35,209 nt of DNA from Acidimicrobiia bacterium (GTDB lineage Bacteria; Actinomycetota; Acidimicrobiia; Spongiisociales; JAENVV01): the NCBI GenBank assembly GCA_041577335.1, contig JBFGJH010000033.1, positions 1 through 35,209 of the forward strand, written 5' to 3'. The notes under the pieces were generated by a model. The model did not search any database, had not been told where the DNA came from, and was given only the letters and a program-made list of their open reading frames with translations. Made by a program: the position numbers and the translations under genes. Each line of letters starts with the position of its first letter. The stretch's first letter is position 1. Below, piece by piece: positions 5,122 to 19,861 of the stretch.

Positions 5122-6435
5122 CTACCGCTGAAAATCGTAGATCGCCCCGAGGCCGAGGAGCTGGCTGAGCTCATCCAAGGCGGTTCTGCTCTGGTCGAGT
5201 AATGAGGGGTCGGCGAGATCGCCTGGCAGGAGCTCGTCGCGGTAGTGACGATGGACCCACGCGACGAGAGCGGCGTAGCGCTCCTCGGTGAGGAGGCTGC
5301 CCGCGTTGACGTGCGCCTGCTGATCGCCCGTCAGAACGACTCGAAGTCGGAGACAGGCCGGCCCGCCGCCGTTGCGCATGCTCTGTCGCAGGTCGAAGAG
5401 CAGCACGCGGTCGATTGCCGAGTCGCCTTCGAGGAGCTCCGTGACGAACTCCCACACCGCCGAATCGCTTCGTACCTCTTGCGGTGCCACGAGGACATGC
5501 TCTGCCCCGACCTTCACCAGCTGGCTGTTGAAGAGATAGGTGCCCACCGCGACGTCGATCGCCACGCGACTCTCCGGCACCTCGACGAGCCGGACCCCAG
5601 GGAGCGCCGACCGCACCGCCCGTTTGACCTCGACCGGGTCGAGGAAGGCTCGCTCGTGGAAGAAAAAGACGTCGAGGTTGCCGACCGAGATGACGTCGTT
5701 GTGGAATACCCCTTGATCGATCGCCGCCGGACTTTGTTGGGCGAGGATCGTGCGGCTCGGGGCAAGGCCATGACGGCGAATCACGGCTTCGCAGGCACCC
5801 CGATGCTGGCGGGCCCGATACCGAGAGGGCTGGCTCGTACCGGGTGCGCCAAACACGAAGAGCTCAATCCCTGGGGACGCATAGTCGCGGGTCAGCCGTG
5901 TGTGGTTGGCGGCCCCTTCGTCACCGAAGGCGCTGGGGAGCGGCGCATGCACGGCGAACAGTTCTTCCGCTGGAAACGTCGCCTCCAGGATCCGCTGTGT
6001 CTCACCGGCTTCGATGCTGCGATGGAACTGCGAGCTGAGATTGGCAACGGTGAGATGCACCCGACCATCCGCCGTATCGGGGGACGGGGAGACCGTGGCG
6101 GCGTTCGCCGCCCACATCGCCGAAGCAGAGGAGGCCGCTTCGAGCAGCCTCGGATCGGCCTGAAGAGCTGCCTGGAGGACCGCCCCGTCGCCTCCGTCGA
6201 ACCCCAACGACCGCAGCGTGGGAATGTGCGGCCGTTCCTGCGGAGGGAGCACTCCTTGGATGAGCCCCAGATCGAACATGGCTTTCATCTTGGCGAGCCC
6301 CTGGAGAGCTGCTTCTTTGGGTCGAGAAGAGAGCCCAGCATTGGCCGCCGATGCGACATTGCCGGCTGCCAATCCACCGTAGTGGTGCGTGGGGCCGACG
6401 ATTCCGTCGAAGTTGACTTCTGCAGCAGCGGTCAT
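5122..6435 (-). CDS. astB: N-succinylarginine dihydrolase
   Basis: EVNFDGIVGPTHHYGGL, SASAMWAANAATVSPS, GDEGAANH, GVFHNDVI, SMRNGGGPACLRLR, YDFQ. Confidence 0.96.
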   Translation of the reverse strand: MTAAAEVNFDGIVGPTHHYGGLAAGNVASAANAGLSSRPKEAALQGLAKMKAMFDLGLIQGVLPPQERPHIPTLRSLGFDGGDGAVLQAALQADPRLLEAASSASAMWAANAATVSPSPDTADGRVHLTVANLSSQFHRSIEAGETQRILEATFPAEELFAVHAPLPSAFGDEGAANHTRLTRDYASPGIELFVFGAPGTSQPSRYRARQHRGACEAVIRRHGLAPSRTILAQQSPAAIDQGVFHNDVISVGNLDVFFFHERAFLDPVEVKRAVRSALPGVRLVEVPESRVAIDVAVGTYLFNSQLVKVGAEHVLVAPQEVRSDSAVWEFVTELLEGDSAIDRVLLFDLRQSMRNGGGPACLRLRVVLTGDQQAHVNAGSLLTEERYAALVAWVHRHYRDELLPGDLADPSLLDQSRTALDELSQLLGLGAIYDFQR

Positions 6436-11425: not shown

Positions 11426-13693
11426 ATGAATAGGGTGGGAGTTAGCGGTTCCTTGCTGGTAGCCGCATTGATGTTGACGACCGCTCTGCCCGTGGGAGCG
11501 CAGGCTGGGCCGACCTGGCAGGACGTGCCAGATCCGGGCCAGAAGCGCATCGAGCCTGAGGCCACGTCCACTTCCCCGCCGACCGCCCTCTTCGTTGGCG
11601 AATTCACGCTCCCGGGGATCGGCGGAGAGTTCATCGACGTCGTGGACATCGACAACGACGGTGACAACGACCTGGTAACGGCTGACGGGTTCGGAGCAGG
11701 CACCGACGTCCGCGTGTATACCGGCAACAACGGTGACTACACCCTGTCCGACACCACCAACTTCGCCGACGGCACCGGCGCCGGGCTCACCCTCGTCGGC
11801 AAGTTGAATGGAGATTCCCTACCGGACGTTGTGGTGATCACCAGCACGGGTTTCCAGGTGGCCATGCGACAGGCCGGGGGCTACATGGCTGCGACCTCCT
11901 ACACGGGCTCAAAGCCGATCCAGCTGGCCGACATCGATGGCGACGGCGACCTCGACGTGATCGGCAAGAGCCAGTTCTGGCGGAATGACGGCTCCGGAGG
12001 CTTTGGGGCCTTCGAAGGGGTGGTGGCCGGCGTTTGGTACGGCGACGTCGATGGCGACGGGCTGGCAGACGTTATCGACCTCGATCCGGAGGGCTATCCC
12101 AACCAAGAAGTCATGAGCGTCGCATACGGCACCGGTGGCGGCAACCACGATCCCTACGTCGAGGTGTGGGTCTCGTTCGAGGAGGAGCACCCCACCGGCT
12201 TGTTCTTCGGGGATCAAGACAAAGACGGCACCAATGAGATCTACATACCGACCGACCTGGAATGGCGCGAAGGCGACCATTTCTACCGGTTCGTGACGGC
12301 CGAAGACGACGGCGGAGGCTTCGAGTCCTACCGCACCGACATTCCCGATCTGGCCGTGGAGGGTTGGGTGCGAGACCTGGACGGTGACGGGGACCGCGAC
12401 ATTCTCATGGTCAGCGGGAGCACCATCATCGTTCAGCAGGCAGTCACAGGCGGCTTTGAGCAGAACGAGTTTTCCGCCCAGTTCGATACCTTCGCAACCC
12501 CCCGCCTCGCAGACTTCAACGACGATGGTGTCCCCGACATCGTCGACATCCGCACCAACGAAGTCGTGTACGCGCTCGGCGTGGATGCTGCCTCCCCGGG
12601 GACACTGACGGTGGACATCGGCAAGGCCGACATGTGCGTTGATGTGATGCGGAGCGGCGTCGGGACCTATACCGGAGAGAGCGCGGAGACGGGCTCGGCC
12701 GGAACGGTGACATTTGATCTGCCGTCCGGTCATTATGACCTGTTCGTGTGGGACTGTTCGTTCGAGTCGACCGGGGTCATGACTCGCCATCCGTACGCGT
12801 GGCAAACGGTGAAGGACGCGTCCGGAGCGCACACGGGGCCGGGCGTGCTGGTGAATCCGAATGAGACGACCGTCGCCGACGTCCAGCTGGAGCTGGGCGC
12901 GATCTACTCGGGGACGGTCACCGATATCCGATCGGGCGCTGCCATCGCTCGGATCACGGTCGGTACCGACAGCGACGATTTCTCGCCCACCAAGACCGAG
13001 ACACCCGGGACGTGGTCGTGGGTCGGCGTTCCGCAAAAAGACGTCCCTGAATTCGTCATCGAGGACCTGGAGGGGTTCTACTTCGAAGAAACCAAGGTTG
13101 GTCCCACCGCCGAGGTGGGCAAGGTGTATGCAACGGTGGATCAGGCGCTCGATGGGCGCTTGGTCGATGCCCGCGACAACATCTTCGCGCAAGACGTCAT
13201 TTGGATCGCCGACGCCGGCATCACCAAGGGCTGCGAGAGCACCGGCTATCTGTACTGTCCAGGCAACAACATCTCGCGGGGCCAGATGGCTGCGTTCTTG
13301 GTACGAACGCTGGGCCTCACCGTCATCGATCCGACTATCTCATTCGACGACATCGATGGGAACCTCTTCGAAGCAGACATCCTCAAGCTGGCGACGGCCG
13401 GCATCACCGCCGGCTGCAACGCCGATGGCAGCGACTACTGCCCGGGAGATCCGGTCAAACGCGGGCAGATGGCCGCGTTCTTGGTGCGAGCCTTTGAACT
13501 GACCGAATCCGACCCGACGATCTCGTTCACCGACACGAGCAAGAGCATCTTCGAGGCCGACATCATCAAGCTGGCCACCGCGGAAGTCACCTTCGGCTGC
13601 AATGCCGAGCGCACCGAATACTGTCCGGCCAAGGAAGTGACTCGTGGCCAGATGGCAGCCTTCATAAGGAGAGCCGTGGAGGGCTCGACGTAG
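11426..13693 (+). CDS. Secreted FG-GAP/VCBS-repeat protein with C-terminal triple S-layer homology (SLH) domains
   Basis: Signal peptide (AQA); multiple DxDxDGxxD repeats; beta-rich middle; three GIT(K/A)GC...YCP...RGQMAAF-type SLH repeats. Confidence 0.88.
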   Translation: MNRVGVSGSLLVAALMLTTALPVGAQAGPTWQDVPDPGQKRIEPEATSTSPPTALFVGEFTLPGIGGEFIDVVDIDNDGDNDLVTADGFGAGTDVRVYTGNNGDYTLSDTTNFADGTGAGLTLVGKLNGDSLPDVVVITSTGFQVAMRQAGGYMAATSYTGSKPIQLADIDGDGDLDVIGKSQFWRNDGSGGFGAFEGVVAGVWYGDVDGDGLADVIDLDPEGYPNQEVMSVAYGTGGGNHDPYVEVWVSFEEEHPTGLFFGDQDKDGTNEIYIPTDLEWREGDHFYRFVTAEDDGGGFESYRTDIPDLAVEGWVRDLDGDGDRDILMVSGSTIIVQQAVTGGFEQNEFSAQFDTFATPRLADFNDDGVPDIVDIRTNEVVYALGVDAASPGTLTVDIGKADMCVDVMRSGVGTYTGESAETGSAGTVTFDLPSGHYDLFVWDCSFESTGVMTRHPYAWQTVKDASGAHTGPGVLVNPNETTVADVQLELGAIYSGTVTDIRSGAAIARITVGTDSDDFSPTKTETPGTWSWVGVPQKDVPEFVIEDLEGFYFEETKVGPTAEVGKVYATVDQALDGRLVDARDNIFAQDVIWIADAGITKGCESTGYLYCPGNNISRGQMAAFLVRTLGLTVIDPTISFDDIDGNLFEADILKLATAGITAGCNADGSDYCPGDPVKRGQMAAFLVRAFELTESDPTISFTDTSKSIFEADIIKLATAEVTFGCNAERTEYCPAKEVTRGQMAAFIRRAVEGST

Positions 13694-13742: not shown

Positions 13743-14735
13743 ATGGTGTTCGCCGCGGAAGAATCCGCAACCAAGAATTTCGTCGATATCACCGTCCCCA
13801 CATGGGGTTGGGTGGGGCTTGGCGTCATCATCATGGTCATGCTCGCCATCGACCTCCTGCGGCACCGCGATGACCACGAGCCGACATTTCGCGAGGCGGC
13901 ATTCGAGTCGGGAGTCTGGGTCGCCACCGGTATTGCGTTCGGGGGAGTGGTTGCGTTCGCCTTCGGCGCCGCGGCTTTCGGTGAGTACATCTCGGGCTAT
14001 CTCATCGAGAAGTCGCTCAGCGTCGACAATGTGTTCGTTTGGTCGTTGCTCTTCACAACACTGGCGATCCCGCTCAAGTATCAGCACCGCGTCTTGTTCT
14101 GGGGCATCTTCGGTGCGCTGGCTCTGCGGGGCATCTTCATAGCGATCGGCACGGCGTTGATCAGCCGCTTCGTGTGGGTCCTGATCGTGTTTGGGCTCTT
14201 CCTGGTTTTCACCGGCTTCCGTATCATCAGACACCGCGACGACGAGGGAGAGAGCGCCGAGACCATTCTGGCGTTTGTGAAGCGGATCCTGCCGGTGTCC
14301 CACGAGTACGACGGCAACCGCTTCATCACCCGCATCGACGGCGTTCGTGCCGCCACTCCGCTATTGGCGGCACTGGTCGTGGTCGAGCTCACCGACGTCG
14401 TGTTTGCCGTCGATTCGGTGCCGGCCATCCTGGCCGTCTCTCAGGAGCCGTTCTTGGTCTTCGCCTCGAACGCCTTCGCAATCCTCGGACTGCGGGCGAT
14501 GTACTTCCTGCTCGCCAACGCTCGCCAGCGATTCCACTACCTATCCCACGCGCTGGGAGCCATCCTGATCTTCGTCGGCCTGAAGATGACGGCGGTCCCG
14601 TGGTACCACGTCGACACCTACATCTCGTTGGGCGTCATCGTGCTGATCCTTGCGGGAGGGATCTACTTCAGCGAACGGAGAGCCCGCGCCCTCGGGATCG
14701 TGGGTGCATCACACCCAGACGAGAAGGTTCTCTAG
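13743..14735 (+). CDS. TerC/Alx family membrane protein
   Basis: GYLIEKSLSVDNVFV, QHRVLFWGIFGAL, DVVFAVDSVPA, SNAFAILGLRAMYF. Confidence 0.95.
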   Translation: MVFAAEESATKNFVDITVPTWGWVGLGVIIMVMLAIDLLRHRDDHEPTFREAAFESGVWVATGIAFGGVVAFAFGAAAFGEYISGYLIEKSLSVDNVFVWSLLFTTLAIPLKYQHRVLFWGIFGALALRGIFIAIGTALISRFVWVLIVFGLFLVFTGFRIIRHRDDEGESAETILAFVKRILPVSHEYDGNRFITRIDGVRAATPLLAALVVVELTDVVFAVDSVPAILAVSQEPFLVFASNAFAILGLRAMYFLLANARQRFHYLSHALGAILIFVGLKMTAVPWYHVDTYISLGVIVLILAGGIYFSERRARALGIVGASHPDEKVL

Positions 14736-15727
14736 GGGCCGGCGGCTCGCCACGCTGCGAGCTCTCGGCGGAAGGCGCCAACCGTCTCCGAATCGGCGAA
14801 GGACGAGTCGATGGCGGTGTTCTGAAGGTCGGCGAGCTCGTCCAAAGTGAAACCGTGATGGCTTGCGGCGATGGTGAGCTCCTTGGTCAGGGTCGTGTAG
14901 AAGTAGGCGGGATCGTCGGTGTTGATGGTCACCGCCACGCCGGCTTCGACGAGGGCCCGAATCGGGTGGTCAGCGAGCGTCGCCACGACACCGGTGCACA
15001 CATTCGAAGTCATCGATATCTCGAGCGGAATCCGGTGGTCACTCAGATACGCCAGCAGCGCCCGATCCTCCAACGCCCTGATCCCGTGCCCAATGCGTTG
15101 GGCACCGAGGTCGCGAATTGCCGACCGCACGCTGGCGGCGCCTTCTGTTTCTCCCGCGTGGGGGAGCGCGGCCAGCCCGGCCGAAGTGACCCGTGCGAAC
15201 GATCGCTGGAACGCGGCGGCCGGCCAGCCCGGTTCGGGCCCGCCCAGCCCGATTCCGACAACACCGACCGGCGCCAGCGGTCCGAGGATGTAGTCGGCGG
15301 TGAAGCCATCGGCAGGCGGCTCGAGCTCACGGGGTATGTCGAGAATCCAGCCGATCCCAACGCCGAGCTGCGCGGCTCGTTTCCGACCTTCGTTGAGCCC
15401 CTCGCGGTATTCCGCCATTGCCATCCCACGCCGATGATGGTTGAACGGTGTCGAGGTCACCTCGGCGTACCGGACATTCTGTTCGGCGAGCTCCGCAGCG
15501 AGGTCTTCCGTTATCTCTGCGAAATCTTCCGAATCTCTCAGAAGCTCGAGCCCGGCAAGGAAGGCGCGCAGGAACCCGTCAAAACCAGTGAACTCGGGCT
15601 CGGTCGACTCCGGCAACGAGGCGCCGTGGCGCTCAGCAAGGCGTTGCGCAGTCCCCGGCCGGATGGAACCCTCGAGGTGCAGGTGCTGCTCAACCTTGGG
15701 CATTGTCGCAATGTGGTCTTCTGTCAT
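14732..15727 (-). CDS. add: Adenosine/adenine deaminase
   Basis: PKVEQHLHLEGS, YAEV, HAGE, RIGHG, TINTDDP metal-binding motifs. Confidence 0.92.
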   Translation of the reverse strand: MTEDHIATMPKVEQHLHLEGSIRPGTAQRLAERHGASLPESTEPEFTGFDGFLRAFLAGLELLRDSEDFAEITEDLAAELAEQNVRYAEVTSTPFNHHRRGMAMAEYREGLNEGRKRAAQLGVGIGWILDIPRELEPPADGFTADYILGPLAPVGVVGIGLGGPEPGWPAAAFQRSFARVTSAGLAALPHAGETEGAASVRSAIRDLGAQRIGHGIRALEDRALLAYLSDHRIPLEISMTSNVCTGVVATLADHPIRALVEAGVAVTINTDDPAYFYTTLTKELTIAASHHGFTLDELADLQNTAIDSSFADSETVGAFRRELAAWRAAGP

Positions 15728-15838
15728 GCCGCGACTCGGTCCCGGAGAATCCGGCCGCATGCCGCCCAAATCGGGCCATCGGGCCCTATGTCACGAGATG
15801 TGCACGCCATACGGTCACATCGTAAAGGAGGTGGACCA

Positions 15839-16243
15839 ATGCTGGACACCAGTGAATCCCAGCAGACGGGTACGCCCTTCCTCCGGCGGAGCAAATCCGA
15901 TCGAATCGTCGGAGGCGTGTGTGGCGGCTTGGGCCGCTATTTCGGCATCGACCCTGTCTGGTTGCGGATCGCATTCGTTGCCCTCGTTGTTGGCGGCGGG
16001 TCGGGGATCATCCTGTACATCGTCGCCTGGATCCTGATACCCGAAGAAGATGAGGACGCGCCGGTTGCCCAACGTCCTCCCACAGACCGCACCACGGCCG
16101 GTGTCATCATTGGCACGATCTTCATCGTGTTTGGGGCAGTCGCCCTGACCAACCGATTCGTGCCCTGGTTCGACGATTTCGTCTGGCCTGCCGTTGTCAT
16201 CGCCATCGGGTTGGGACTTGTCGTAGGAGCGTTGAAACGATGA
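15839..16243 (+). CDS. pspC: PspC domain-containing membrane protein
   Basis: LRRSKSDRIVGGVCGGLGRYFGIDPVWLRIAFV...LYIVAWILIPEE; strong SD AAAGGAGGT before ATG 15839; two extra C-terminal TM helices. Confidence 0.92.
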   Translation: MLDTSESQQTGTPFLRRSKSDRIVGGVCGGLGRYFGIDPVWLRIAFVALVVGGGSGIILYIVAWILIPEEDEDAPVAQRPPTDRTTAGVIIGTIFIVFGAVALTNRFVPWFDDFVWPAVVIAIGLGLVVGALKR

Positions 16244-16908
16244 CTGACCGAATCGAAACCCAAGAAAACATGCCGGAGCTTCCGGCAGCGGCACCACCAA
16301 CACCCAGGCACCGCCATGGTTCGCTCGGCACAGCCACATTTGGTTTGGTGCTGGTCGCGATTGGACTGTTCTGGTTGCTCGATCGGCTCGATGTAGTGAG
16401 CGTCGATGGGGCCGTCGTGCTGCCTCTCATTCTCACCGCGGTTGGTGTGGCCCTGCTGATCGGTTCGTTCGACGGTGAACATGCCGGTCTGGTCGTTCTC
16501 GGCGTCTTCTTGTCGGTTGGCGTCCTGATCGCGTCAACGACCCCGTTAGCCTTTCTGACGAACGGAGTCGGCGAGAGGGTGTACACACCGACGTCCGAAG
16601 CCGCACTCGGCGACGCATTCCAACTCGGCATAGGTGAGCTTCGGCTCGACTTGAGCGGGCTGGCCGTGATCGACGAGGCAGTGGTTGTCGGCGAATTGGG
16701 TATCGGGGAGCTCCGAGTGGTGGTTCCCGAAGGCGTGGCTGTTGACATCACCAGCGAGGTAGGCGCCGGCGAGATCAATCTCTTTGGAGCAACCCGATCC
16801 GGAACGGGCGTCTCCGACACGTTTCGCTCGGCGAATTTCGACTCCGCATCCCAGCGCCTGGTCCTTGAGCTCGACGTCGCCATCGGTACAATCGAGGTAA
16901 CAAGATGA
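16240..16908 (+). CDS. LiaF/DUF2154-like membrane protein (N-terminal TMs plus C-terminal beta-solenoid)
   Basis: Three TM helices then LGIGELRLDL...LGIGELRVVVP...VGAGEI...VAIGTIEV repeats; ATGA-coupled to pspC. Confidence 0.82.
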   Translation: MTDRIETQENMPELPAAAPPTPRHRHGSLGTATFGLVLVAIGLFWLLDRLDVVSVDGAVVLPLILTAVGVALLIGSFDGEHAGLVVLGVFLSVGVLIASTTPLAFLTNGVGERVYTPTSEAALGDAFQLGIGELRLDLSGLAVIDEAVVVGELGIGELRVVVPEGVAVDITSEVGAGEINLFGATRSGTGVSDTFRSANFDSASQRLVLELDVAIGTIEVTR

Positions 16909-17105
16909 AACGAGACTTCCATCCAGGAACGTTCACCGCGGGTGCCATTTTCGTGGTGTTCGGCATCGCATTCACGCTCGAAGGTCTGGAGGTTTGGACT
17001 CTGCGATTGCGCGATCTGGATGTGCTGTTCCCGGTAGCCGTCTTGGCCATTGGGATCGCCATTCTGTTCGCAGCTATGTGGGCCCGGCCTCGTAGGAACA
17101 TGTGA
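16905..17105 (+). CDS. Small two-TM membrane protein of the Psp/Lia-like module
   Basis: 66 aa, two hydrophobic helices, basic tail; ATGA overlap with the upstream gene. Confidence 0.75.
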   Translation: MKRDFHPGTFTAGAIFVVFGIAFTLEGLEVWTLRLRDLDVLFPVAVLAIGIAILFAAMWARPRRNM

Positions 17106-17149
17106 CCCAACAACCGAAATACCCGAATCCGTAAGAGGAGGCCCTTCCC

Positions 17150-19102
17150 ATGCCGGCCTTGGGAGCACTGATCGGAGTCTCGCTGGCTCTGGCGGTCGCT
17201 TTGTCGGTATGGGCGCGCCGCCGGTTGGACACGCCTCGAAGCGTCGCTGCTGAGCGATCTCAGACAATGGCAGTATCCGATAGGCACGTCTTCTGGCGTT
17301 TCTCGCGGCCCTACCGCGGGCCACTCCTGGTGGCAGTTGTACTGACTCTCGCGCTCGTCGTCATCGACCTCGCGCTGCCGTGGCCGCTGGCAATCGTGAT
17401 CGATCACGCCATCGGAGGAGCGGCTCTCCCGGGACCGCTCAGCGCACTCGAGAACCTCACACCGTCCGCCCTCGTCGCTTTGGCGGCTATCAGCACTGTT
17501 GCCCTCACTGCTCTCAGCGGCCTCACGATGTACATGGTCACCTACCTCAACGGTGGGGTCCAGGCCCGCATCGGGGCAGACCTGCGGTCCGAGGTGTTCG
17601 CCCGCATGCAAGACGCCTCCTTACGCTTTCACGACCGAATCCGCACCGGTGACCTGCTCGCCCGCCTGAGCATCGATGTCTCATTCGTCGAAGACATGCT
17701 GGTGGCGTGGTTCGAAACAGCCCTCCCCGAAGTCCTCACCCTGTTGGGCGTGTTCACAGTGATGGTCATCATCGACCCGACGCTTGCGCTGACGGCGCTC
17801 GTCGTGCTTCCCTTGTTGGTGTGGTGGGCGCGGTGGGCTCACGGGGCTGTCCGCTCTGCTGAAATGCGAGCTCGTTCATCGACCGGATCGATGCTCGATA
17901 CGGCGGGAGATTCCTTGCGCCACGTGCGCGCCATCCAGGTGTTCTCTCGCCAACAGCAAGCGATCGAGACGTTCATCGCCGAGAGTGACGAGGCTGCCGA
18001 TTCTCAGATGGCAGCAGTGGAGCGGTCGGCGAGGCTCGCCCCGTTCGCGGACGTTGTGCTGGCAGCCGGAGGCGCAGCGGTTCTCTTCGTGGGCGCGCAG
18101 CGTGTCCTCACCGGAAACCTCACCGTGGGCATCCTCGTCGTTTTGCTCACTTACATTGCCCAGCTGTACGGCCCAATCGAGAGCCTCTCGCTGCTGGTGA
18201 TGACCATGGCGCGGGGGGCGGCCAGCAGGGATCGACTGGTCGAGTTGTTGGATGCGGAGAGGGCGGTCACGGATCCTGTGGAACCGGACGAGGCGCCTTC
18301 GGGGCCGGTCACGCTGTGCGTCCGCAATGTCAGATTCTCGTACGGAGACGCCCAAGCCGCCCTCCAGCGATTCTCTTTCACCGCCCGACCCGGTGAAGTG
18401 GTTTCGATCGTTGGCTCAACAGGCGCAGGCAAGTCGAGTCTCCTGTCGCTGCTGGTGCGCCTCTACGACCCGGACTCCGGGGCCATCATGCTCAACGGGG
18501 TTGATGTGAGACGCCTGACCGTCCGTGCGGTGCGGGACCGCATCGCTTTCGTGCCGCAGGACATGTGGATTCTGGACGGCACCATTGCCGAAAACATCGC
18601 GTTCGGACGACCCGATGCAACCGACGAAGAGGTGGCCCGGGCAGGACGCGCTGCGCTCGTGAACGAATTCGTGGACGACCTACCCGACGGTTACGACTCG
18701 GTAGTGGGGGAGGAGGGGATTGGACTTTCCGGTGGTCAGCGACGTCGTGTCGCTCTCGCACGGGCGTTGATTCGCGAAGCGCCGGTGGTGATCCTCGATG
18801 AACCCACCTCGGGATTGGACGCAGACGCCGCCGCCCAAGTGTGGGGTTCGATCGAGGCTCTTCGCGATACCCGAACGGTGCTCATCGTCACGCACGACCT
18901 GCAGCTCGCCAGTCGCGGAGATCGCATCTATGTCATGGAATCTGGCCGCAACGTCGAGTCGGGCTCGCACAGGGTCCTCCTCAAGAAGAACAAACGATAT
19001 GCCGGCCTGTGGCGGAGTCAGGGACCCGCCCTCGTCGGTACTGGGGGCCATGGCGCCGCTGACGCGGTGTCGCCACCCAGCCGAGGCGAAGAAGGGAGGT
19101 GA
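17150..19102 (+). CDS. ABC exporter, fused TMD-NBD (MsbA/MdlB-like), no C39 peptidase domain
   Basis: TMD (LALPWPLAIVIDH, TGDLLARL), Walker A GSTGAGKS, signature LSGGQRRR, ILDEPTSGLD, VTHDL; SD GAGGAGG. Confidence 0.94.
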   Translation: MPALGALIGVSLALAVALSVWARRRLDTPRSVAAERSQTMAVSDRHVFWRFSRPYRGPLLVAVVLTLALVVIDLALPWPLAIVIDHAIGGAALPGPLSALENLTPSALVALAAISTVALTALSGLTMYMVTYLNGGVQARIGADLRSEVFARMQDASLRFHDRIRTGDLLARLSIDVSFVEDMLVAWFETALPEVLTLLGVFTVMVIIDPTLALTALVVLPLLVWWARWAHGAVRSAEMRARSSTGSMLDTAGDSLRHVRAIQVFSRQQQAIETFIAESDEAADSQMAAVERSARLAPFADVVLAAGGAAVLFVGAQRVLTGNLTVGILVVLLTYIAQLYGPIESLSLLVMTMARGAASRDRLVELLDAERAVTDPVEPDEAPSGPVTLCVRNVRFSYGDAQAALQRFSFTARPGEVVSIVGSTGAGKSSLLSLLVRLYDPDSGAIMLNGVDVRRLTVRAVRDRIAFVPQDMWILDGTIAENIAFGRPDATDEEVARAGRAALVNEFVDDLPDGYDSVVGEEGIGLSGGQRRRVALARALIREAPVVILDEPTSGLDADAAAQVWGSIEALRDTRTVLIVTHDLQLASRGDRIYVMESGRNVESGSHRVLLKKNKRYAGLWRSQGPALVGTGGHGAADAVSPPSRGEEGR

Positions 19103-19107
19103 ACACG

Positions 19108-19194
19108 ATGCGTCGCTGCCGCTGCCGTTGCCATGGTAGGCCCCGCTGCTACTACCGGTACTACGGGCATCATCGGCATTGTCACCATCGATAG
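19108..19194 (+). CDS. 28-aa Arg/Cys/His/Tyr-rich peptide MRRCRCRCHGRPRCYYRYYGHHRHCHHR
   Basis: Read directly from the sequence. The perfect SD GGAGGTGA contains the ABC exporter stop codon and lies 5 nt before ATG 19108; TAG at 19192-19194; GC hairpin 21 nt later. Below the size cutoff of the ORF track. Confidence 0.7.
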   Translation: MRRCRCRCHGRPRCYYRYYGHHRHCHHR

Positions 19195-19215
19195 AGAAAC
19201 CCACTAGTCAGACGC

Positions 19216-19241
19216 GACCGCGGCCCGAATGAGCCGCGGTC
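19216..19241. terminator. Hairpin between convergent genes (probable bidirectional terminator)
   Basis: GACCGCGGC-N8-GCCGCGGTC, perfect 9-bp stem, no U-tract. Confidence 0.65.
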
Positions 19242-19258
19242 CCGTCGCGAGGAGGCGA

Positions 19259-19861
19259 TCACCGGTGAGTCGAGTCGGTCCCTTTCCGCCCCACGAAGAG
19301 CAGGTCGATCGCCGAGCCGTTCCCGGTTGTTCGGGTCTGCCGCTCGACTCTCAGTGGCTCCACGACCCCTGCGAAATCGCCAACGATGTCAGCCTCGCTG
19401 AACAGCACCGTCGGGTCTTGCGGACCTCCCGAGCCGTGCTCCAGATTGTCGGTGTGGTGGGCAACCACCAAGTACGTGCCGCCTCGAGCGAGTGCTGCGC
19501 CCATCGACCGGTGAACCCGACGCCGCAAGGCCTCCGGCACCTGCAGATAGAACTCGATAATGAGATCGAACGAGGTCGTTGGTTCCCAGGTACTCAAATC
19601 GGCGGCAACGAACTCTGGGCTGACGCCGGCCTGTTGGCTCAGTCGCCCGGCTTTTGCGATGGCGACAGGGCTGAAATCCACCCCGGTGACATCCCATCCT
19701 TGTGACGCCAGCCAGATGGCGTTTCGGCCCTCACCGCAGGCCACGTCGAGTGCTCGCCCAGGGGAGAGGTCCGCTACGAGGGCAGGTAGGAATTGGTTGG
19801 GCTCTGCAGTCCACACGAGGTCTGTCGAGGCGTACCGCTCGTCCCATTCTGAGGCGTCCAT
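19259..19861 (-). CDS. Class I SAM-dependent methyltransferase (TehB-like)
   Basis: WDERY, ALDVACGEGRNAIWLA, VTGVDFS; leaderless (TAGGAT 6 nt upstream). Confidence 0.92.
   Translation of the reverse strand: MDASEWDERYASTDLVWTAEPNQFLPALVADLSPGRALDVACGEGRNAIWLASQGWDVTGVDFSPVAIAKAGRLSQQAGVSPEFVAADLSTWEPTTSFDLIIEFYLQVPEALRRRVHRSMGAALARGGTYLVVAHHTDNLEHGSGGPQDPTVLFSEADIVGDFAGVVEPLRVERQTRTTGNGSAIDLLFVGRKGTDSTHR

Follow-up and report, generated by a model that had tools for sequence, protein, structure and literature searches.

We analyze a 35,209 bp contig from an Acidimicrobiia bacterium (JBFGJH010000033.1, assembly GCA_041577335.1; the whole stretch is hereafter the window), in which an open reading frame (ORF) of 28 codons directly follows the gene for an ATP-binding cassette (ABC) exporter, and put forward evidence that this micro-ORF is very probably a real and conserved gene belonging to an exporter-linked family. 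As judged from sequence, the family appears to be rare, so far unannotated and present in at least three phyla. A fuller reading, in which the micro-ORF is coupled to the exporter through a Shine-Dalgarno (SD) sequence, both genes form a mobile module and the peptide is the leaderless cargo or stoichiometric partner of the exporter, has in our judgment about an even chance of being correct.

The elements on which the original prediction for this locus was built (an SD sequence containing the exporter stop codon, the ORF itself, a hairpin behind it and same-strand genes upstream) are all present in the sequence (Table 1). The peptide encoded by the micro-ORF is composed of 9 Arg, 6 His, 5 Cys, 4 Tyr, 2 Gly and 1 Pro besides its initial residue, with no acidic residue, no Ser or Thr and none of Leu, Ile, Val, Phe, Trp or Lys. 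Pfam searches and ORF translation agree with the earlier statement that no leader peptide and no C39 domain are present; the peptide is also devoid of a double-glycine motif. An extended SD of the form R-GG-R-GG-TGA lies 3-7 nt upstream of the start codon in 13 of 13 micro-ORFs of the exporter clade described below; extended SDs ending in GGTGA are complementary to the 3′ end of the 16S rRNA.

Table 1. Features of the exporter/micro-ORF locus, in window coordinates.
Feature	Position	Strand	Remarks
PspC-domain, LiaF-like and LiaI/LiaF-TM genes	15839-17105	+	Pfam; PspC start (15839) as originally predicted
LiaF-like gene	16240-16908	+	Pfam
LiaI/LiaF-TM protein gene	16905-17105	+	66 aa; Pfam
Inserted module (exporter, micro-ORF, hairpin)	17106-19258	+	Span missing in same-genus genome G001
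ABC half-transporter gene	17150-19102	+	650 aa; stop TGA at 19100-19102
Extended SD GGGAGGTGA	19094-19102	+	Encloses exporter stop TGA; ATG 5 nt further
Micro-ORF	19108-19194	+	28 codons plus TAG (19192-19194); product MRRCRCRCHGRPRCYYRYYGHHRHCHHR
GC-rich stem-loop without U-tract	19211-19246; 9-bp core 19216-19224/19233-19241		Strand unassigned; folding
S-adenosylmethionine (SAM) methyltransferase gene	19259-19861	other strand	Convergent with exporter and micro-ORF; Pfam

Conservation of the micro-ORF was assessed across exporter loci with a test blind to composition, which required an ATG or GTG preceded at 4-11 nt by GG[AG]GG, located between -45 and +200 nt relative to the exporter stop and opening an ORF of 18-70 aa on the exporter strand; 19 loci in which the exporter end was not reached, or fewer than 120 nt followed the exporter, were not evaluable. 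Such an ORF was found in 13 of the 14 evaluable loci of the exporter clade versus 4 of 117 other exporter loci; a separate clade, in which most micro-ORFs use TTG, a start codon that the test does not count, had it in 3 of 12 loci. The comparable ORFs that had been anticipated behind orthologous exporters are thus present, and the proposal of an undescribed exporter-micropeptide system is both supported and extended. Further members were contributed by a scan of one genome per species and by a phylum sample searched with the clade profile. A separate filter on composition (SD, 18-70 aa, top three residues amounting to at least 65% and net charge of at least +6), applied to both strands of 789 kb, passed 10 distinct ORFs, five of which are the post-exporter ORFs.

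The micro-ORFs of the clade span 21-55 codons and encode low-complexity, mostly polycationic repeats of (RC)n, (RS)n, (RT)n or G/S/K type. In genome G005 (locus L002), GAAGGGAGGTGAAC-ATG comes directly after the exporter stop and opens a 21-codon ORF, MYPYRRRRCRRRRCRCRCRCR, followed by a hairpin, and genome G314 has a 55-codon Gly/Ser/Lys-rich ORF behind AAGGAGGTGAAAC. The peptide of L033 (Ca. Eisenbacteria) is MDIKGTATVFRSRRRRRKGSRSRSRSRSRT, that of L042 (Ca. Geohabitans) is MAIKGVPRVFHGGNSGSGGGSTAPTPPTPPTPATVTTTTTV and that of L039 begins MGNRSRSRRRRTKGCWNPCGG, while seven genomes of the actinomycetotal family f68 encode peptides such as MSRGRGRGRRVRGGHKVFSHHGGHSASSMSKSRTRTRTRTRTRG and MSHGRGRRVRGSVHVFSHRHGHSHSRSRSRSRSRSRERSRSRD. 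The window itself combines an exporter of this clade with the extended SD, a hairpin and, between them, a co-directional ORF within the size range of 21-55 codons. No Pfam or NCBIfam family matches any of the peptides, the sole Pfam near-matches being compositional and falling in RS-rich eukaryotic regions (expectation value, E, 0.4-0.8), and the ESM Atlas yielded no usable match for them. A profile of nine family peptides retrieved a single match, a 44-aa 'hypothetical protein', among 5.8 billion sequences. A literature search whose coverage excluded most subscription journals returned no description of such a cassette; in the accessible parts of two retrieved reports, the actinomycetotal leaderless bacteriocins (PMC11580447) and the DUF1127 small proteins (PMC12501420) are unlike the exporter-micro-ORF system.

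The exporter matches PF00664 ABC_membrane (E 2.6e-36) and PF00005 ABC_tran (E 4.8e-32), displays GSTGAGKS (Walker A), LSGGQ (signature) and LDEPTS (Walker B) motifs in the alignment and is a generic ABCB-like half-transporter of type IV fold, with ABCB1/ABCB19, Sav1866, TmrAB-like and MsbA chains as its closest solved structures. It falls below every NCBIfam equivalog cutoff (best match MsbA_rel, with 405 bits where 780 are required), and the NCBIfam bacteriocin_ABC and NHLM models match only its core, far under cutoff. Its sole orthologue among 40 relatives is that of G005 (607 bits, 49% identity; next best 358 bits), and at E ≤ 1e-115 it occurs in only 3 of 401 sampled genomes of the class. 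In a first tree of 109 exporter rows, from which 24 partial or stop-containing loci were omitted, the six peptide-linked rows then known and L036 form one clade (SH-like approximate likelihood ratio test, SH-aLRT, 99). A second tree of 87 rows took in every locus through L056 and from L137 onward, as well as every third one in the range L057-L136, without the partial L042, L143, L145, L147 and L164; here nine peptide-linked rows and L036 form one clade (SH-aLRT 100), in which the Eisenbacteria member is the sister of the pair formed by the window and G005. Both are quick IQ-TREE runs, with long branches for L031, L039 and L036. The clade comprises members of Actinomycetota, Ca. Eiseniibacteriota and Ca. 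Sysuimicrobiota, and residues E194, R257, W473, D476 and R532 mark the subfamily, although they are uninformative on cargo.

The 80 metagenome loci retrieved reach at most 38% identity in the transmembrane domain (TMD), and none of those long enough for the tree falls in the clade; the best match in a plasmid search has 39% identity and lacks the cassette. The top of a protein-representative search was dominated by 1200-aa two-half ABCB proteins, with about 13 half-size proteins at 625-955 bits that come without gene context. Two unpublished genomes, G036 (locus L025) and G715, serve only as an outgroup/control row and a tally entry, and no claim depends on them.

Variation between strains and the placement of start codons bear on whether the micro-ORF is translated as a frame of its own. 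In three further metagenome studies (X7, X9 and X10), contigs 90-99% identical to the window carry the 87-nt ORF with four variant sites and no indels, the changes within it being CGC>CAT (R5H), GGT>TGC (G10C) and the synonymous GGT>GGC. About 14 substitutions and 3 indels are found in the 65 nt after its stop codon, and 14 variant sites in the last 503 nt of the exporter. In keeping with the original prediction, no disruption of the frame was found in these strain variants. A 605-nt contig (record 15 of run X7) matches only positions 19147-19188 (codons 14-27), with 4 differences in 42 nt and a CYYRYYGHHRHCHH-like core, preceded by its own ATG AGT CAT CGT CGG CAT CGT CGT CGG (MSHRRHRRR...) and followed directly by TAG; its ORF is a variant mini-gene with another N-terminus, and a third member of the Cys/His/Tyr type. 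For near-identical f68 peptides, the ratio of nonsynonymous to synonymous polymorphism (pN/pS) is 0.18-0.40 in the ORF frame and, in the other frames, 0.36 in one pair and otherwise 0.75-3.4, with few sites behind all these values; those for L139/L164, an ungapped and misaligned pair, were disregarded. A further possibility, that frameshifting joins the peptide to the C-terminus of the exporter, is ruled out by L033, in which the micro-ORF starts 155 nt past the exporter stop, and by L031, which has an in-frame TGA two codons ahead of the micro-ORF ATG. Because of this gap and this stop, initiation would be independent of the exporter frame.

Several observations nevertheless count against the micro-ORF being a gene of one conserved family. 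Composition alone proves little, because Arg-rich out-of-frame ORFs are common in a genome of 63% GC (the G+C content of the window is likewise 63%), and 45 of the 6169 SD-led ORFs of 18-70 aa in this genome pass a loose filter for cationic low complexity, which would favor a chance ORF that happens to lie in GC-rich sequence between the end of a gene and its terminator. The search of sequencing runs listed no RNA run containing the stretch. One clade exporter, that of L036, is without a co-directional ORF. A (V/I)(K/R)G-x3-V(F/H) motif common to nine peptides with a neighboring kinase gene is missing from those of the window and L002, and peptide homology therefore rests on synteny and not on sequence. 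Chance is nonetheless an extremely improbable explanation, given the contrast between clade and other exporters in the composition-blind test, an extended SD in every member, an ORF free of indels in strain variants and an R+C+H+Y content that is unique in the genome, the window micro-ORF being the only one of the 6169 to reach 0.7 (0.86, followed by 0.60). What is decisive is positional conservation in relatives together with frame conservation in strain variants. L036 also harbors, at 5885-5971 on the minus strand and just past the terminator hairpin, a convergent SD-led 28-codon ORF encoding MQTAPTSRDRHQDKEIEKDKDKDGGRDR, a roughly neutral K/D repeat, and no kinase is found in that locus.

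In most relatives the cassette extends to a Ser/Thr kinase. A standalone Pkinase protein is encoded after the hairpin, on the same strand, in 10 loci (L031/L041, L033, L039, L042, L138, L139, where it is cut by the contig end, L140, L143, L145 and L164), with L141 not evaluable. These kinases have about 300-340 aa and 38-50% identity between lineages, share an invariant catalytic Lys, HxD-x4-N loop and Asp of the DFG position, and find their best NCBIfam match in the generic PknB type; in L033 and L042 the kinase gene is succeeded by response regulators. The earlier statement that no modifying enzyme is present holds for the window, but most relatives have this kinase beside the peptide gene. 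The kinase-linked peptides contain 22-32% Ser+Thr, as opposed to 0% in those of the window and L002, in whose repeats Cys takes the position of Ser. Neither the window genome (G000, 90.75% complete) nor G005 contains a kinase of cassette level, their best matches scoring 154.6 and 147.9 bits, respectively, versus 485.8 and 414.4 bits in the cassette genomes G454 and G314. Kinase presence co-occurs with the Ser/Thr content of the peptide, which suggests a relationship between the two, and the window is a kinase-less, Cys-for-Ser variant of the cassette family. A predicted complex of the G454 kinase with its own peptide, ATP and Mg (score 0.01, mark 0.32) is evidence neither way.

These elements can be arranged into a tentative mechanism. 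The 28-codon ORF would be translated from the extended SD overlapping the exporter stop, yielding a leaderless peptide that would act as the dedicated cargo of an exporter homodimer or as its tightly stoichiometric partner. In relatives, the Ser/Thr-rich repeats (RS, RT or GS tails) would probably be the substrate of the adjacent kinase; in the lineage of the window the kinase would have been lost and (RC)n would stand in place of (RS)n, so that the chemistry of the peptide would involve thiols, His and Tyr, through disulfides or metal, and not phosphate. Translation, export, phosphorylation and an extracellular role are all steps that we infer, whereas the ORF with its SD and hairpin, the conserved position and frame, the exporter clade, the insertion and the joint occurrence of kinase and Ser/Thr content are established from the sequences. 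A bolder version, which we regard as quite unlikely, envisages a bacterial form of charge-switchable polycation export, in which the exporter would secrete, or be gated by, an Arg-X repeat peptide whose charge is tuned by the kinase, with a thiol redox or metal switch taking over in the window; this would be a bacterial counterpart to the phosphorylation of serine/arginine-rich (SR) peptides or protamines.

The proposed mechanism is weakened by several points. Linkage to the exporter is the whole basis for inferring export, and nothing in the exporter sequence suggests a peptide cargo, since neither a C39 nor an accessory domain is found. The TMD net charge averages +4.4 in the clade and +6.3 in other exporters, which gives no clade-wide signal. 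Because the window and G005 are sisters, the contrast in kinase and Ser/Thr content represents a single evolutionary event.

The peptide may instead stay in the cell and have a partner or regulatory role there. It might modulate the exporter or, in relatives, serve the adjacent kinase as substrate, docking peptide or regulator; alternatively, it might be a protamine-like polycation binding nucleic acid or polyphosphate. The lack of a signal or leader sequence and of a C39 domain would fit such a role, as would the response regulators after the kinase in L033 and L042, and an N-terminal (V/I)(K/R)G-x3-VF confined to kinase-linked members fits kinase docking. The exporter, however, is the only constant partner, being retained with the peptide and without the kinase in the window and G005, and cargo or subunit stoichiometry offers the simplest explanation for translation so tightly coupled to that of a membrane exporter. 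On balance we deem an intracellular role unlikely.

Cysteine and histidine make up 11 of the 28 residues of the window peptide, and His clusters recur in relatives, the six f68 peptides whose tail is of RS or RT type having 3-6 His and the L031 peptide ending in GGGCH. These features would be in line with a metal-binding peptide, resembling a metallothionein or metallophore, that is loaded with Zn, Cu or Ni or scavenges them and is exported or buffered by the pump, a proposal that may overlap with the cargo reading. The Cys/His pattern is nonetheless not conserved in the family, L033 having neither Cys nor His and L002 no His; no metallothionein family is matched in Pfam or NCBIfam (E ≤ 1), and no conserved metal-homeostasis gene lies nearby. 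Metal binding as the function of the peptide is thus improbable.

Folding of the region behind the micro-ORF yields a hairpin with a minimum free energy of -30.1 to -30.5 kcal/mol (z -3.5), and one strain variant carries a compensatory pair within it (19224 C>A with 19233 G>T). A hairpin lies 3′ of the micro-ORF in 11 of 11 folded loci, with z between -0.99 and -5.86 and nine of them at z ≤ -2.8; Rfam returned only two sub-threshold chance matches. In the window it likely constitutes the 3′ end of the exporter/micro-ORF transcript and, located between convergent genes, it may serve both. The order of ORF, hairpin and kinase in kinase-linked loci would also suit a cis-regulatory leader or attenuator, in which translation or stalling on poly-Arg controls the hairpin and read-through to the gene beyond it and the product itself is irrelevant. 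We consider this very improbable, since neither the window nor G005 has a co-directional gene after the hairpin, the next genes being convergent, and since purifying selection acts on the peptide sequence among close relatives and its composition tracks the presence of the kinase.

Comparison of gene neighborhoods shows the exporter to be the only gene always linked to the micro-ORF. In G005 a DNA methylase lies upstream of the exporter and infA is convergent downstream, and the neighbors in the other members examined (L031/L041, L033, L039, L042, G454 and G692) are unrelated to those of the window. Psp/Lia genes stand beside the exporter in the window only, being absent from that position in G005 and in all these members. 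The same-genus genome G001 (98% complete) encodes LiaF-like, LiaI-like and methyltransferase proteins 53%, 58% and 60% identical, respectively, to those of the window, and in it the PspC-LiaF-LiaI operon abuts the methyltransferase gene, the LiaI-like and methyltransferase genes overlapping tail to tail with neither exporter nor mini-ORF between them. Since exactly the stretch 17106-19258 is missing from G001, the exporter, micro-ORF and hairpin of the window are an inserted two-gene module. The exporter tree conflicts with taxonomy and the distribution is patchy, indicating horizontal transfer, and these data point to exporter and micro-ORF moving horizontally as a two-gene unit. In the GC-rich loci, greedy ORF calls produced many ORFs without matches, and only Pfam-positive ones were used. 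The cassettes L178 and L180 of genus g206 (G454 and G692) both lie beside genes for a maltokinase (TreS/Pep2-like) and glgB, an adjacency that is probably shared synteny of close relatives.

These comparisons bear on the version first proposed for the locus, in which the peptide is a leaderless secreted antimicrobial and PspC, LiaF and LiaI provide self-protection. Its cationic Arg/Cys/Tyr composition would suit this role, and it is preceded on its own strand by the Psp/Lia genes immediately ahead of the exporter; because the gap to the exporter is only 44 nt, contains an SD and revealed no terminator-like site, co-transcription is plausible in the window organism. The functional tie to these genes, however, did not survive the comparison, for G005 and the other members examined are without them and G001 has the operon without the module, so that their adjacency in the window is an incidental result of insertion. 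With no hydrophobic or amphipathic segment in the peptide and no conserved immunity gene, an antimicrobial protected by the Psp/Lia genes is decidedly improbable. Nor do these genes make up a conserved envelope-stress unit with exporter and micro-ORF, the co-occurrence being specific to the window.

Functionally closest among known systems are leaderless peptides that have an ABC exporter of their own and the kinase-containing lanthipeptide/SapB clusters. The former are alike in several respects: the peptide is leaderless, there is no signal peptide or C39 processing, the gene is linked to an exporter and the product is cationic. Leaderless bacteriocins such as aureocin A53 and lacticin Q, and the staphylococcal phenol-soluble modulins exported by Pmt, are amphipathic helices of 20-55 aa rich in Trp, Lys and hydrophobic residues; peptides of the aureocin A53/lacticin Q kind have 40-55 aa and are active without processing. 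The peptides described here, in contrast, are nearly devoid of hydrophobic residues and consist of Arg-X repeats or Gly/Ser runs, which sets them apart from leaderless bacteriocins. Their exporter is a single ABCB-like half-transporter, unlike Pmt or ABC-2-type systems, and most members have a conserved Ser/Thr kinase that leaderless-peptide systems do not. They also differ from peptidase-containing ABC transporter systems of the SunT/LagD type, since the exporter has no C39 domain and the peptide no double-glycine leader.

Class III/IV lanthipeptide and SapB (ram/amf) clusters combine a kinase-containing synthetase with a Ser/Thr/Cys-rich peptide, an ABC exporter and a response regulator; their LanKC/LanL enzymes unite lyase, kinase and cyclase domains, and the precursor carries a leader. 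The relatives of the window likewise encode a Hanks-like kinase and an exporter together with a peptide rich in Ser/Thr(/Cys), joined in L033 and L042 by a response regulator, and the cassette kinase gives weak, sub-threshold matches to LanL (84.7 bits) and LanKC (56.4 bits). This kinase is nevertheless standalone and has no lyase or cyclase domain in Pfam, most of the peptides are without Cys and the window has no kinase, and the cassette thus falls outside these clusters. The absence of a match to any metallothionein family model and of conserved Cys/His spacing likewise separates the peptides from bacterial metallothioneins. With eukaryotic protamines and SR domains there is an analogy of composition only, in the Arg/Cys/Tyr/His-rich peptide of the window, the (RS)n and (RT)n repeats of its relatives and the adjacent kinase; there is no homology, the peptides being bacterial, 21-55 aa long and tied to a membrane exporter.

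Small proteins of fewer than 50 residues are routinely missed, and a recognizable cassette is now defined, in which an exporter of the clade is combined with an extended SD, a peptide made of repeats and a hairpin, in most cases also with a kinase. If exported, these peptides would represent a new type of leaderless secreted polycation and, were the charge-switch version true, a new class of secreted micro-proteins, unmodified or phospho-modified, to which current gene callers are blind. The co-occurrence of kinase and Ser/Thr leads to the hypothesis that the kinase has its natural substrate encoded by the neighboring gene, a rarity among Hanks-type kinases, and the kinase-less, Cys-for-Ser variant of the window offers a natural experiment on the relation between kinase and peptide.

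Several minor observations concern the exporters and the remainder of the window. The TMDs of the window (17150-18270) and L002 exporters, the two that are paired with (RC)n peptides, are the most acidic of the set, with a net charge of -6 compared to a 5th percentile of -2 and a median of +7 among 133 others, and both exporters have an additional hydrophobic N-terminal segment ahead of the canonical TMD. A sister-group exporter, L090, is followed 4 nt past its stop by an SD-led 57-codon ORF whose product, a small protein beginning MPERGWIEKRESQYVRIKEG, is of mixed charge and non-repetitive sequence. The exporters of family f73 (34-38% identical to that of the window and in a separate clade, SH-aLRT 100) have a coupled hydrophobic ORF of 20-27 codons after the stop in L149, L151, L154-L158, L160, L162, L163 and L165, often overlapping the exporter stop and often with a TTG or GTG start; its product follows the pattern MRELL(I/V)xxxIVLTxxVxxIY(I/L)SF(A/L), has no Pfam match and looks like a conserved single-helix membrane protein. 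Two antisense ORFs of the window that overlap the exporter 3′ end, 18680-19204(-) and 19018-19188(-), belong to no Pfam family and were discarded. Further upstream, the window encodes a protein of 755 aa that combines FG-GAP repeats with an S-layer homology (SLH) domain (11426-13693); next come TerC (13743-14735) and, in convergent orientation, an adenosine deaminase (14732-15769).

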